NCBI GenBank assembly: GCA_963714085.1
Contig: OY970229.1
Location: forward strand, 632,392 to 696,391
Reading direction: 5' to 3'
Origin: an uncultured Candidatus Micrarchaeota archaeon
Lineage (GTDB): Archaea; Micrarchaeota; Micrarchaeia; Anstonellales; Bilamarchaeaceae
Length of the DNA: 64,000 bases
The notes beneath the pieces were generated by a model, which saw only the letters and a list, made by a program, of their open reading frames with translations, was not told the DNA's origin and ran no database searches. A program made the position numbers and the translations under genes. The first letter of the stretch is position 1. Every line of letters starts with the position of its first letter. Of the stretch, positions 27,941 to 32,902 are shown in pieces.

Positions 27941-29467
27941 ATGGATGACCGAGAAAAGGCGCTTGATTACATCATAGCCCGGCTCAGGAAAGGCCGCAGG
28001 GACGTCTCCAGCCTCAAGCTCGATGCCGCGAGGAAGCTCGGCATGGGAAGCGTGGTGAGGAACAGCGAACTCATCACGAGGGTGAGGGCGCGGAACCCGG
28101 AGCTGCTTCCGCTGCTACAGAAGCGCCCCATGCGCACGCTCTCCGGAGTGACCCCGGTCGCAGTCATGGTCAGACCCGAGGGCTCCTGCCCCTACTCCTG
28201 CGCATACTGCCCGACCGGGCTCGGCGCCAAGAGCTACACCGGCTTCGAGCCTGCGGCGCTCAGGGCGAGGGAGGAGGGTTTCGATTCCTACGGCCAGGTA
28301 CGGAACAGGCTGAGGCATTACACCGAATGCGGACATCCTACTGACAAATGCGAGCTCATAGTGATGGGCGGCACGTTCCTGAGGATGGGCGCGGCCTATA
28401 AGCGCTCCTTCGTGAAGGGGATATACGACGCGCTGAACTGCAGGAGAGGCAGGACACTGGCGGATTCCCAGAAACGGAATGAGCACGCGCGCAGCCGAGC
28501 CGTGGGACTGACCATAGAGACCAGGCCCGACGTCTGCGGGGAAAAAGAGATAGACGAGATGCTCGGCTTCGGTGCGACGCGCGTCGAGCTCGGGGTCCAG
28601 CACCCGGACGACAGGATATACAAGGCGATAAACAGGGGGCATGAGACCAGCGACGTGATAAGGGCGACCGCGCTGCTCAAGGACAGCGCGTTCAAGGTCC
28701 TCTACCATATCATGCCGGGGCTGCCGGGGTCCAGCCCCAGGAAAGACGTATCGATGGTGAAGCGGCTCTTCTCCGACCAGAGGTTCAGGCCGGACATGCT
28801 GAAGATATATCCAGCCCTGGTGATGCCCGGGACCGGGTTGGAGAGGATGATGCGGGAGGGCGGTTACGAACCGTACGACACCGAGAAGGCGGTGGAGACG
28901 ATATCGGAGTTCTACCGCCATCTGCCCTCTTATGTGCGCGTGATGCGCATACAGCGCGACATACCCGCCGGCCTGATAGCCGCCGGTGTGAGGAACAGCA
29001 ACCTGAGGCAGTTGGTCGAGGAGAGGATAGGGGAGAAGAGGATCAGGTCGCACGAGATCAGGATGCGGGAGATAGGCGGCTGCAGCATGAGGGGCTTCAG
29101 GACGAAAAGGCTCGAGTACGAAGCGAGCTCCGGCAAGGAGGTCTTCCTCTCTTACGAGAACGGCGATTCGATGATCGCCGGGTTCCTGCGCCTGCGCATC
29201 CCGCACGAGCCGTTCCGCAGGGAGATAAGCGAGGGGACCGGGCTCCTCAGGGAGCTCCACGTCTACGGAGCCGAGACGCGGCTCAGGCAGAGCGGGCGCG
29301 TGCAGCACAGGGGCGTCGGGAGCCGCCTGCTCATGGAAGCAGAACGGATCGCGCGCGATCAGTTCGATATGAGGAGGATGGCTGTCATAAGCGGGATAGG
29401 CGCAAGGGACTACTACAGGAAAAGGGGATACCGCCTCGAAGGCGGCTACATGACGAAAAAGATATGA
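27941..29467 (+). CDS. elp3: Elp3-type tRNA uridine(34) modification enzyme (radical SAM + GNAT)
   Basis: CPYSCAYCP cluster motif, a radical SAM core, and C-terminal GNAT QHRGVGSRLLMEAERIA. Confidence 0.9.
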   Translation: MDDREKALDYIIARLRKGRRDVSSLKLDAARKLGMGSVVRNSELITRVRARNPELLPLLQKRPMRTLSGVTPVAVMVRPEGSCPYSCAYCPTGLGAKSYTGFEPAALRAREEGFDSYGQVRNRLRHYTECGHPTDKCELIVMGGTFLRMGAAYKRSFVKGIYDALNCRRGRTLADSQKRNEHARSRAVGLTIETRPDVCGEKEIDEMLGFGATRVELGVQHPDDRIYKAINRGHETSDVIRATALLKDSAFKVLYHIMPGLPGSSPRKDVSMVKRLFSDQRFRPDMLKIYPALVMPGTGLERMMREGGYEPYDTEKAVETISEFYRHLPSYVRVMRIQRDIPAGLIAAGVRNSNLRQLVEERIGEKRIRSHEIRMREIGGCSMRGFRTKRLEYEASSGKEVFLSYENGDSMIAGFLRLRIPHEPFRREISEGTGLLRELHVYGAETRLRQSGRVQHRGVGSRLLMEAERIARDQFDMRRMAVISGIGARDYYRKRGYRLEGGYMTKKI

Positions 29468-30286
29468 TCAGGGCAGCCCTTCCGGGGGTTTGAGCAGCTC
29501 GTCCTGCTGCTTGAGCAGCTTCAGATACTCGTTCTGCAGGTCCGCGAACTCCTTCTCCTCCTCGTCGCTGAATATCCTGACATGGCGCACGGCGTTCTTC
29601 ACCTGTATCTTCGGCGAGATGTCCGCTATGAGCTTGAGGTTCTCGCTCAGCTTGTCCCGCACATCCGGCGTCACCCAGACCCTGCGGTTCTGCAGCTGGA
29701 CCGCTACCTCCGGATGAGTAGGCGCTGGGAATAGCGAGCCGTTACTCACCTCGGCGGGCATGCCCAGCCTTCCAAGGACCAGAGCGATCTCCCTGCCCAA
29801 AGGCTCCTCGCCTTTGAGTATAGGGATGGGGACATCGAGCTTGCCTTTGCGCACCTGCTCGGCCAGCGAGTCCCGGACGTCCTTCTGCAGCCTCGCGAGC
29901 AGGAGCGCGAGCTTGGCGATGCTCTCCCGCTCTTCGTAGTTCCGCTTGAGCAGCGCTCCGCGGCTGGAGAGGAGCTCGTAGCTGCCGCCCGCGCGCTTCG
30001 CCATGCAATCCGCCAGCTCCTTCGGCGGGCAGGAGGAGAGCAGCTGGTTGAGCCTCGCTATCTCCTGCTCGTTGGGAATTGCGATCTTCACCCCTGCGGC
30101 GTCCATCCTGGCCGAGAGCGCGTCGAGCTGACCCTGCACTGAGCGCAGGGCGGCCTCCGCCTGCTCCAGCGCGGCGGGTTCTGCCCCAGCGGACTTCCGG
30201 ACGTCCAGCTTGAACGACAGCTCAGCCCTGCTTTTGGCCAGTTCTAGGAACGTGACGAGGTCTTTTGATTCCACGCTTGGCGCCAT
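29468..30286 (-). CDS. Coiled-coil hypothetical protein (last gene of the long minus-strand run)
   Basis: 272 aa, Ala/Leu/Glu/Lys-rich heptad-like sequence. Its start overlaps the upstream gene's 3' end by about 65 nt, so the start is uncertain. Confidence 0.45.
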   Translation of the reverse strand: MAPSVESKDLVTFLELAKSRAELSFKLDVRKSAGAEPAALEQAEAALRSVQGQLDALSARMDAAGVKIAIPNEQEIARLNQLLSSCPPKELADCMAKRAGGSYELLSSRGALLKRNYEERESIAKLALLLARLQKDVRDSLAEQVRKGKLDVPIPILKGEEPLGREIALVLGRLGMPAEVSNGSLFPAPTHPEVAVQLQNRRVWVTPDVRDKLSENLKLIADISPKIQVKNAVRHVRIFSDEEEKEFADLQNEYLKLLKQQDELLKPPEGLP

Positions 30287-31970
30287 CGGATAACCCTTGG
30301 TCGTAGGCTTTCCTGACTAATATGTAGATTAGCACTATCAATATTAAAAACATTAACAACACGACGAGGATTGTCTGGAGGCCGGACGACGGCTGGGTTT
30401 GGGGCTGCGCCGCGGGGCGCGCCGATGATTCCATCCGCGCGAAGAGCGCGTCCAATCCCTCGGCGTAGCGCAGCGTGGTGAACGCCTCTGGCTCCAGGGA
30501 CGTGTTGTTCTGGGCCGCGAGCCATGCGGCGTGGGACTGGTAGACCGCGCCCCAGAGCGAGATCCGCTTCTCGGCCAGCATCGCCTGCACCTGCGATTTC
30601 ATGTCCGCGCTGCCCATGCCTACCATGTCGGAGTCCGCCTGGGAGGTCTCGATCACGTAGGTGCAGTCGAACAGCGCCGCGCCGTACCTGCCCTGGTCGA
30701 AGGACAGCCTGGCCGAATCCAGATGCTGCGCGAGGTCGGCATCCAGGTTGTCAAGGCCCTCGGCTTGGGCGAGCTCTGCGGACGCGAGCCCTTTCCATGC
30801 GGATTCGTTGAGCTCCGTGCCGTTCCTTCCAGCGGCGTCGCTGAGCAGGCCGGACACCGAGCACCAGGCGTAGGCGTACATGATCGCGTCGTAATCGCTG
30901 TACTTCTCATCGACCGTGTCCGCGCCAGAGATGTCCGTGGAGTTCAGCTGGTTCTCGGCCCAGGATCTCCGCGCGTCCGCGCCCACCAGCCATTGGAAGT
31001 TCTCGCTCGTCTTTGGGATGTCTGGCAGCGATGCTATGCACCTGGCCACGGATTCCTTCTCCGTCTGCAGGTCTGTGTCCTGGGTGAGCATGGCGCCCAC
31101 CGTGGAAGCCTCTATGTAATCCTCGAACGCCTCGTTGGCAGCGCTGAAGAGATAGCCTTTCCCCAGGATCTTCTCCTGCCTAGAGAGCTCCGAGGAGTAG
31201 TACTTCTTTATGGTGGCGGAATCGTTGTCCGATGACGGAAGGCCCTGGACGGTCCGGTTCTCCAGCGACATCATGCCGGCTGCCACGTTGTAGAAACCGG
31301 CCGCGGCGGATGGGTCGTACTGCGGCACGTCCGGGACCGGCTCGGACTCGCGTTCCAGTGATGGGGCGGGCAGGGACTGGTTGAAGAGCATGAATCCGAT
31401 TGCGTCGTCCATGTTCCCGGCCTCGACCACCCTGAGCCCGGTGGCCGCTTCGCTGTTCCTGAGCATGAGGGTGTCGAAGATGCTGTCGTTCGGAGTCATG
31501 AAGTACTTCGCGCCCGATGCCGCCACAGCCAGGGATTTCTCATAGAGCCCGCCGACCTGTCCGACGCCGCCTTCGGGGTCCACCGCGCCGGTCATCATGG
31601 CGTCCTGCCTCGGGGACATGCCGGTCGCGGCGCCATAGGTGAGGACGGCTATCGCGGCGCCCGCGCTGGGACCGTCCACGTAGCTGGCTGAACCCGAGCT
31701 GATGCTGACGATCGCATCGCAGCCGGACTCGTTGGCTTTCCCCAGCCCGTATTCCACGGCATCATGCACGGACTGCTGGGTTGTGGTGCTGGTCTGGGGA
31801 TAGACGGAAAGATACGCCCCTCCGCTCCCGGGCACGATTGTCACGGAGATGTTCACGGTATCCGAACCCGAGCCCACCACGGCCGGCACGCTCATACCCG
31901 CGCTGCCGTTGCACTGCGCAACGCAGAGGGCGCTCAGCAGGATGAGGAACAGAAAACATCGTGGGTCCAT
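30222..31970 (-). CDS. Exported, C-terminally membrane-anchored protein with a Lon (S16) protease-like domain
   Basis: Signal peptide MDPRCFLFLILLSALCVAQC. VDGPSAGAA (Lon catalytic Ser context) and VGGLYEKSLAVAASGAKYFMTP (catalytic Lys context). Long helical region. C-terminal TM ILVVLLMFLILIVLIYILV. Start set at the internal ATG (comp. 31968-31970). Confidence 0.7.
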   Translation of the reverse strand: MDPRCFLFLILLSALCVAQCNGSAGMSVPAVVGSGSDTVNISVTIVPGSGGAYLSVYPQTSTTTQQSVHDAVEYGLGKANESGCDAIVSISSGSASYVDGPSAGAAIAVLTYGAATGMSPRQDAMMTGAVDPEGGVGQVGGLYEKSLAVAASGAKYFMTPNDSIFDTLMLRNSEAATGLRVVEAGNMDDAIGFMLFNQSLPAPSLERESEPVPDVPQYDPSAAAGFYNVAAGMMSLENRTVQGLPSSDNDSATIKKYYSSELSRQEKILGKGYLFSAANEAFEDYIEASTVGAMLTQDTDLQTEKESVARCIASLPDIPKTSENFQWLVGADARRSWAENQLNSTDISGADTVDEKYSDYDAIMYAYAWCSVSGLLSDAAGRNGTELNESAWKGLASAELAQAEGLDNLDADLAQHLDSARLSFDQGRYGAALFDCTYVIETSQADSDMVGMGSADMKSQVQAMLAEKRISLWGAVYQSHAAWLAAQNNTSLEPEAFTTLRYAEGLDALFARMESSARPAAQPQTQPSSGLQTILVVLLMFLILIVLIYILVRKAYDQGLSDGAKRGIKRPRHVPRTGQKQG

Positions 31971-31978
31971 TGCGATCA

Positions 31979-32545
31979 CTATAGCCTTTTGGCTGCCAAT
32001 ATGCCCTTGTCCGTCTTGAAGAACTCGTATTCCTCCGCCAGATAGAGCTTGCCGAGCTGGGAGCCGGCCCCTTTTATCGAGTCCACTATGCTGCCGCTCG
32101 GCAGATCCTCGTAGAGGTAGGCCACTGCGTAGGACTTCCCCATGGACCTGGCGTCCTCCTCCCTCTGCCTGAGCAGGATGCGCCTTATGTCCCTGCCTTC
32201 GAAGGACAGCAGGACCGCGGGGTCTTCGAGATATATGGCGTTCGTCTGCTCCCCGCCCCGCACCGTGCGCCTCTCCGGGTCGTATACCGCGGGCCATGAG
32301 AGGCCCACGCCTATGAGCATGCGGTTGACGCAGCAGCCGAATGAGGTCTTGTAGTCTATTATGCCGCCGACCTCGGCAGGCGTGACGTCGAAGGCGCACT
32401 TCTGCATCACCTTGACGCATTCCTCCAGATCCTCGCGCGTGAGCCTCTTGACCTCGACCTGGTCCTCGTCGAGAAGGTAGAGGAATTTCTTCTTCTGGGC
32501 TTCCGGCTTCTTCTCCTCCTGCTTCAAGGCAAACGACTCGCTCAT
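31979..32545 (-). CDS. Hypothetical cytoplasmic protein (possibly GNAT-like fold)
   Basis: 188 aa with no TM. The weak resemblance to the acetyltransferase fold is an impression only. Confidence 0.45.
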   Translation of the reverse strand: MSESFALKQEEKKPEAQKKKFLYLLDEDQVEVKRLTREDLEECVKVMQKCAFDVTPAEVGGIIDYKTSFGCCVNRMLIGVGLSWPAVYDPERRTVRGGEQTNAIYLEDPAVLLSFEGRDIRRILLRQREEDARSMGKSYAVAYLYEDLPSGSIVDSIKGAGSQLGKLYLAEEYEFFKTDKGILAAKRL

Positions 32546-32563: not shown

Positions 32564-32902
32564 TCACATGAATTTCGTGTTGCATGCCGGGCACTGGGTG
32601 AGGAAGGCCTCGCTCCTGTACCCGCATATAGGGCATATGTAATAAGTCCTTTTAGCCCTTTCCAATTCGGCTTCGAAGCTGTATTTGCACTGGCCGCACC
32701 TCGGGGCGTCCAGCTCGTTGAGGAAACCGCAGTTCGGGCACTTGCGCCTGAACATGCTCTTTATGTGCGTGCCGCACTTCGGGCAGCGCTCCATGTCCAG
32801 CGTGACCGGGGCGCCGCAGTTCGGGCAGTTCTGCGACTGGCCCTTATGCGTGGAGCCGGACTGGCCGCGCAGCGCGTCCTTGAACATCTGGAGGATTCCC
32901 AT
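32564..32902 (-). CDS. Multi zinc-ribbon protein (six CxxC pairs)
   Basis: CPNCG...CPKCG...CPNCG...CGQCK...CPICG...CPACN in 112 aa. Confidence 0.7.
   Translation of the reverse strand: MGILQMFKDALRGQSGSTHKGQSQNCPNCGAPVTLDMERCPKCGTHIKSMFRRKCPNCGFLNELDAPRCGQCKYSFEAELERAKRTYYICPICGYRSEAFLTQCPACNTKFM

Follow-up and report, generated by a model that had tools for sequence, protein, structure and literature searches.

An ATPase-free Lon-fold protein, predicted to be exported and membrane-anchored, is encoded by nearly all Micrarchaeota

What does a Lon proteolytic domain do when it stands behind a signal peptide, without the AAA+ module to which such domains are normally fused in the cytoplasm? 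The question was raised by one gene in a window of 64,000 nucleotides (nt) from the genome of an uncultured Candidatus Micrarchaeota archaeon (GenBank assembly GCA_963714085.1, contig OY970229.1, positions 632,392 to 696,391). A preliminary description, made from the letters of this stretch alone, had read the open reading frame at 30222-31970 as an exported, membrane-tethered Lon-S16-like protease, and had suggested that it matures a giant protein encoded upstream. The encoded protein was confirmed to be an S16 (Lon_C) fold with an aligned Ser102/Lys145 dyad and without an ATPase.

The open reading frame is genuine and lies on the minus strand; no strand had been given before. Its start was placed at the ATG at 31970 (MDPRCF...), because the stop of the upstream gene p188 lies 8 nt before this codon. 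A longer frame (30222-32420) was ruled out, as it would overlap p188, which is itself a genuine gene. The strings cited in the preliminary description were located at residues 1-20 (MDPRCFLFLILLSALCVAQC), 98-106 (VDGPSAGAA) and 139-160 (VGGLYEKSLAVAASGAKYFMTP). Approximately 68 full-length homologues (28-84% identity) were found, and a full-length AlphaFold2 (AF2) model was built from 43 homologues, with a mean predicted local distance difference test score (pLDDT) of 90.4 and a predicted template modelling score (pTM) of 0.81. The model contains a Lon fold (residues 22-196), a linker (197-225), 12 helices (226-517) and a last helix at residues 532-559 (hydrophobic core 531-552). Each part was verified by translating its coordinates again. 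The parts are as follows.

30222-31970, minus strand: whole protease gene, 582 codons and a stop (open reading frame and translation).
31911-31970, minus strand: predicted signal peptide, residues 1-19 (MDPRCFLFLILLSALCVAQ), followed by the conserved Cys20 (N-terminal hydrophobic stretch).
31383-31907, minus strand: Lon_C (S16) proteolytic domain, residues 22-196 (Pfam, PDB sequence search and Foldseek).
31665-31667, minus strand: codon of the catalytic Ser102, inside DGPSAG (nt 31659-31676), from alignment to the Lon active-site Ser motif; codon verified.
31536-31538, minus strand: codon of the catalytic Lys145, inside GGLYEK (nt 31536-31553), from alignment to the second Lys of Lon GG(V/L)KEK; codon verified.
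31296-31382, minus strand: extended Pro-rich linker, residues 197-225, without secondary structure in the AF2 model.
30420-31295, minus strand: all-alpha domain of 12 helices, residues 226-517 (separate AF2 model).
30315-30380, minus strand: predicted C-terminal transmembrane helix, residues 531-552 (LQTILVVLLMFLILIVLIYILV), from the AF2 helix and hydrophobicity.
30222-30314, minus strand: basic tail, predicted to be cytoplasmic, residues 553-582 and the stop; the next gene, p272, begins inside it and covers its final 21 codons.

The S16 fold was supported by sequence and by structure. Pfam PF05362 (Lon_C) matched residues 35-167 (39.7 bits, expectation value (E) 5e-10, cut-off 21.1), and a sequence search of the PDB matched Lon proteases at E ~1e-8. 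Foldseek, proposed in the preliminary description as a check, supported the Lon fold by matching the E. coli Lon proteolytic domain (1rr9, 3wu3, 3wu6) at E 1e-10 with target-normalised TM-scores of 0.79-0.82. When the protein was aligned to the Lons in the PDB, DGPS102AG fell on DGPSAG, MT127G on MTG and GGLYEK145 on GG(V/L)KEK. Ser102, Lys145 and Gly100 were invariant in 188/188 family representatives, which are otherwise 25-40% identical, and residue 127 was Thr in 180 and Ser in eight of the same set. The Ser and Lys contexts named in the preliminary description were therefore correctly recognised, and neither of the findings that it had said would undo it (an unsupported S16 fold, or a Ser and Lys out of register with the Lon dyad) was encountered. 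Catalysis by the exported domain would be expected from this fold and the invariant dyad.

The absence of an ATPase, also claimed at the outset, held in both the Pfam and the NCBIfam matches. No AAA+, PDZ or any further Pfam domain was detected in the protein (PDZ was checked to E 1). NCBIfam models of LonA, LonB, spore Lon and SepM matched the active-site region only, at 25-37 bits against cut-offs of 200-891; the lon, lon_rel and spore Lon models, which stand for AAA+-fused enzymes, gave 29-37 bits against cut-offs of 517-723. The protease domain begins at residue 22, which leaves no room for an N-terminal AAA+ module as in canonical Lon.

A canonical LonB was found separately in the same genome (688 aa, AAA+ with the LonB LID domain, G000:C1:1076454-1078520; L084 58-2124, plus strand). 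It reads EGDSAS where the exported protease reads DGPSAG, and GPSAG is a motif that we take to be of the LonA/YlbL type. The best PDB sequence scores were likewise to bacterial LonA (~38 bits, against at most 29 bits for archaeal LonB structures). Because motif type and best scores are both LonA-like, the exported protease is not a recent offshoot of this genome's LonB. The genome also encodes SppA (S49), a Trypsin_2/HtrA-like protease and two subtilases (S8). These genes rule out that the exported Lon is the sole extracytoplasmic protease and replaces SppA or HtrA; it is an activity additional to SppA, the HtrA-like protease and the subtilases. The subtilase domains (G000:C1:926254-927195 and 846930-847604, both plus strand) lie in open frames of 1576 and 4001 aa. 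In this Micrarchaeota genome, a single contig of 1.57 Mb, both frames probably encode giant proteases of the cell surface.

The evidence that the catalytic domain faces outside the membrane is indirect but strong. The N-terminus carries a signal-peptide-like hydrophobic 14-mer after MDPR. The second and last hydrophobic segment spans residues 531-552 and is followed by a tail with nine Lys/Arg and two Asp. Between these hydrophobic ends, 12 N-x-S/T sequons for N-glycosylation were counted against 3.2 ± 1.6 expected from 2000 composition-preserving shuffles, of which 0/2000 reached 12; across the family the mean was 8.2 sequons against 3.5 expected. Both hydrophobic ends (the N-terminal stretch and a C-terminal 19-mer) were present in 170/183 family members, and the C-terminal tail was net positive in 172/183, with an average net charge of ~+6. 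Four cysteines are at least 90% conserved in the family and vary pairwise. C311 and C370 occurred together in 169 of the 188 representatives, were jointly absent in 18 and were single in one; C20 and C84 were mostly lost jointly, C20 alone being kept in four sequences. This co-loss favours a disulfide over lipidation of a lipobox Cys20. A lipoprotein reading of Cys20 is unlikely for this reason and because some members have E, D or Q at position -1.

Signal peptide, sequon excess, co-varying cysteine pairs and positive tail all argue for an outside location. The topology analysis thus agreed with the preliminary description of a protein that is probably exported and C-terminally tethered. The cytoplasmic placement of the catalytic domain in canonical Lon is, judged by these features, probably not shared. 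Micrarchaeota have an S-layer above a pseudoperiplasm of 20-25 nm (bioRxiv 10.1101/2021.04.28.441871), and the ectodomain, predicted to be glycosylated, would sit in this space.

The region between protease domain and anchor had been described as helical and about 330 aa long. The helices were borne out, but the AF2 model gave a domain of about 290 aa. Modelled alone from 48 sequences drawn from related loci, it reached a pLDDT of 95.6 and a pTM of 0.92, and the pTM of the full-length model suggests a fixed orientation of this domain relative to the protease domain. With Foldseek, no match was found in the PDB (best E 0.65, TM-score at most 0.2) or in BFVD, and neither a PDB chain by sequence profile nor a Pfam family was found. 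Residues F282, R334 and W369 are invariant, and N279 (187/188) and W473 (186/188) nearly so; the conserved residues lie within or close to the motifs Y-x-F-S-A-A-N-E-A-F, A-W-C and S-L-W-G. The domain also holds the cysteine pair C311/C370. The window protein carries the helical motif, R334, W369-C370 and W473 after its Lon_C domain, as the family does.

A profile of the helical domain was searched against 1.84 billion representatives and matched 476 proteins, 362 of them at E <=1e-10. Among the 150 matches listed, truncated entries excepted, the domain lay at approximately residues 210-530 of proteins of 530-670 aa, after an N-terminus of Lon_C size, and the ten most distant matches all had Lon_C ahead of it. 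The helical domain was therefore seen in one fixed architecture only. Its most likely role is to select or gate substrates, by analogy with the bacterial ecto-Lon proteases YlbL and SepM, in which a PDZ domain occupies the same place.

Within Micrarchaeota the helical domain was found in 383/401 sampled genomes, 185/188 high-quality genomes and 150/155 genera, mostly with one match per genome. The protease gene is thus a near-universal core gene of the phylum. In total, 78 genome loci were recovered, all from Micrarchaeota-type metagenome-assembled genomes. Weak matches led to a large sister family in Woesearchaeota/Nanoarchaeia, which comprises at least 1758 clusters at 90% identity. Its members (P0069 family, ~585 aa) resemble the window protein in having a signal peptide, Lon_C, a helical domain (~330 aa there), a transmembrane helix and a basic tail. 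A profile-profile comparison of both full families gave a probability of 99.9% (E 2e-36) over 420 columns that extend into the helical domain. The helical domain alone gave a moderate match (probability 63%, E 7e-5, 206 collinear columns), in which the Woesearchaeota motif YSSASYCF aligned with FSAANEAF of Micrarchaeota. The helical domains of the two families are likely homologous, as judged from these alignments.

The Woesearchaeota family differs in its surroundings: a PLD-type gene adjoins it, and neither p272 nor the upstream genes of the window (Zn112, p188 and the giant protein) are among its neighbours. At two Woesearchaeota loci (L086 8001-10848 and L087 8001-11392), a PLDc_2 (HKD) gene comes after the exported S16 protease. 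One database protein (P0328, 931 aa) combines PLD and Lon_C domains, either by fusion or because two genes were merged in the call.

A word-indexed search with the protease domain alone returned few relatives outside the family. Homologues are named 'S16 family serine protease [Candidatus Micrarchaeota archaeon]' at NCBI and 'predicted S18 family serine protease' at JGI, the latter presumably the label of COG1750. A literature search under COG1750 or 'S18 family serine protease' found no paper on the family. MEROPS lists S16.A12, 'PF1438 (P. furiosus)', as an uncharacterised peptidase group in Crenarchaeota, Euryarchaeota and Korarchaeota (PMC3625958). This group may be the wider family of the window protein, the two being linked by names and by that listing alone.

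Gene neighbourhoods were compared by mapping the window proteins onto the 78 loci with tblastn. Upstream counts were restricted to the 51 loci that had 9 kb of sequence or more, and the giant gene was scored within 10 kb upstream. The genes that flank the protease in the window are as follows.

29468-30286, minus strand: p272, downstream orphan protein, predicted cytoplasmic; overlaps the protease gene by 65 nt.
31979-32545, minus strand: p188, upstream protein, predicted cytoplasmic and possibly GNAT-like; 8 nt from the protease start.
32564-32902, minus strand: Zn112, double or triple zinc-ribbon protein (Pfam DZR, E 4e-16).
27941-29467, plus strand: ELP3, convergent with p272.

The most constant neighbour was p272, which follows the protease in 63/69 loci with enough sequence. 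Across the phylum the two genes either overlap by roughly 60-100 nt or are separated by a gap of ~10 nt, the tightest pairing observed. In the window the first 21 codons of p272 overlap the last 21 of the protease in a different frame, and the N-terminus of p272 is conserved from its ATG onward. For p272, neither Pfam nor the PDB yielded a relative, and the protein shows no membrane segment. The overlap and the basic tail of the protease suggest a cytoplasmic partner. Convergent ELP3 (58/63 loci) and p275 ranked after p272 in constancy; the window shows the same arrangement as the family, p272 and then convergent ELP3.

On the upstream side, Zn112 and p188 preceded the protease in 35/51 loci and travelled together even where the giant protein was not nearby. 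p188 is much more conserved than the protease (46-63% identity across loci against ~40%), and 6/20 of its members gave weak Acetyltransf_1 (GNAT) matches. In many relatives an opposite-strand, PP-loop-like gene stands between p188 and the protease. It encodes 236-245 aa with weak Asn_synthase/QueC matches (L001 9237-9947, L004 9210-9947 and L002 9229-9948, all minus strand). The window lacks this gene at the junction, where 8 nt separate p188 from the protease.

The protein is probably a housekeeping or regulatory, ATP-independent surface (ecto-)protease of the envelope. A signal peptide would export the Lon-fold Ser102/Lys145 endopeptidase and the tightly packed 12-helix domain into the space between membrane and S-layer. 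The C-terminal helix would anchor the whole as a type-I membrane protein, with the short basic tail remaining in the cytoplasm. The enzyme would then cleave exported or membrane proteins at segments that are accessible or unfolded, as is thought for YlbL/DdcP and SepM. Cutting would be energy-free, because the protein lacks an AAA+ motor and ATP is not available outside the cell. The helical domain, at the position of the PDZ domain of YlbL/SepM, would select or gate the substrates. A core role in envelope maintenance or regulation is most likely, rather than that of an accessory to one cargo, because the gene is near-universal, mostly present as one match per genome and located in a housekeeping syntenic block.

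Several points weigh against this assignment. Since SppA, an HtrA-like protease and subtilases are also encoded, nothing forces a general quality-control role on this enzyme. For the helical domain, the role was argued from position alone. In the supplements of a study of Ca. Micrarchaeum harzensis, the parts covered show LonB only (PMC8975820). Finally, purified soluble YlbL was inactive in vitro (PMC6051672), so that ecto-Lon domains may depend on partners or on a membrane setting.

The alternative favoured by the preliminary description was a dedicated maturase, which would cleave or activate the 1533-aa Cys-rich exported protein upstream, six paralogous membrane proteins with a shared C-terminal motif, or both. 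The adjacency on which it was based is real in the window, where one minus-strand run joins the protease and the upstream giant module with gaps of at most 18 nt. Closer relatives keep the order paralogs, giant, Zn112, p188, protease: the giant gene was upstream in 29/51 loci overall, and in 10/11 where the protease is at least 40% identical. Giant protein and protease are also both rich in sequons and cysteines, and both are probably outside the cell. The giant gene was, however, within 10 kb in 0/12 loci at <32% identity, although p272 was retained in 10/12 of these. At two loci (L002 and L003), genes for rhomboid and FtsZ adjoin Zn112, p188 and the protease, and neither paralogs nor a giant gene were called within the upstream 10 kb. 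Even where the giant gene is near, two cytoplasmic genes, often together with the opposite-strand gene, lie between it and the protease.

Because the giant gene is missing from the divergent loci and from the quite different neighbourhood of the homologous Woesearchaeota family, giant adjacency is not a family property. The operon link described initially is accordingly a feature of the window genome and its closer kin, not of the family. The maturase proposal had this adjacency as its sole basis, and since the adjacency is lineage-specific, a dedicated maturase is considered doubtful. A candidate substrate was also dropped. The Micrarchaeota S-layer protein described in the literature has a mass of 101 kDa, a PF05123-like domain and almost no sulfur amino acids (10.1101/2021.04.28.441871), so that identification of the Cys-rich giant neighbour as S-layer protein and substrate is unsupported.

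A more far-reaching proposal builds on the helical domain. The 12 helices would form a new fold that replaces the AAA+ ring or PDZ and turns the protease domain into a tethered, gated chamber, perhaps a ring, that works in the pseudoperiplasm without ATP. DPANN as a whole would share this solution to proteolysis outside the cytoplasm; in Micrarchaeota it would be required to mature the neighbouring envelope machine, with the basic tail and p272 as its connection to the cytoplasm. Taken as a whole, this proposal is quite unlikely.

Foraging or a host-directed activity was also weighed, in which the protease would digest host or environmental proteins for nutrients or remodel the host surface at contact. 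The gene is universal in a phylum whose members depend on hosts and have reduced genomes (PMC8975820), and the same architecture recurs in other DPANN lineages. A protease tethered by a transmembrane helix below the S-layer, in a pseudoperiplasm of the depth given above (10.1101/2021.04.28.441871), would nevertheless have limited access to foreign proteins. No peptide-transporter genes were linked to the protease at the loci examined, and the large subtilases of the genome are more typical of a foraging role. Such a function is considered very unlikely. The weakest alternative, a structural or binding module without catalysis, has precedent in the Lon-fold domains of RadA/Sms and ComM, which lack proteolysis, and catalysis here is predicted from sequence; it is extremely improbable, since invariance of Ser102, Lys145 and Gly100 in so divergent a family, with only Thr or Ser at 127, is expected only if catalysis is selected.

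An envelope (ecto-)protease of this kind would be of interest for several reasons. Micrarchaeota and other DPANN live attached to hosts, and the building and maintenance of their envelopes is almost uncharted. A near-universal, confidently modelled and probably surface-displayed protease offers a practical entry to surface-protein substrates in the cultivated Ca. Micrarchaeum harzensis, for which the catalytic residues give easy controls (S102A, K145A). The family also bears on the way in which a Lon protease domain can function without ATP; YlbL, inactive in vitro, poses the same question. The protein does not represent a new kind of system; its accessory helical domain is without a detected structural relative.

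SepM of streptococci, named a pheromone-processing protease by NCBIfam (NF041438), is beside YlbL/DdcP a second example of an ecto-Lon that likely acts outside the cell. The window protein scored 25.5 bits with the SepM model against a cut-off of 200 and is not a member of that family. YlbL/DdcP of Bacillus subtilis combines a transmembrane segment, a Lon domain and PDZ without an ATPase, is likely extracellular, needs its Ser and Lys for function and was proposed to act on membrane-anchored YneA (PMC6051672). An exported Lon without an ATPase had been presented in the preliminary description as an exception to the cytoplasmic, AAA+-fused norm. It is such an exception, but not an unprecedented one, as YlbL/DdcP and SepM precede it.

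Archaeal LonB (PDB 3k1j, 1z0b, 1xhk) shares with the window protein the protease fold, membrane association and an archaeal host; it differs in being cytoplasmic and in having an AAA+ module with a transmembrane insertion. Closest in name are the archaeal 'S16' or 'predicted S18 family serine protease' entries, names borne by the homologues of the window protein; no member has been characterised. ATPase-less, membrane-anchored ecto-Lons are thus a known kind in bacteria, and the archaeal family is already named in databases. With YlbL and SepM the window protein shares the Lon_C Ser-Lys dyad, a LonA-type GPSAG, the lack of AAA+, a membrane tether and a catalytic domain that is likely outside. 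The bacterial proteins come from Firmicutes and have an N-terminal transmembrane anchor and PDZ, whereas in the archaeal protein a signal peptide and a C-terminal anchor are combined with a 290-aa all-alpha domain, and PDZ is lacking. What is new in the archaeal family is this combination of signal peptide and C-terminal anchor, with a helical domain in place of PDZ.

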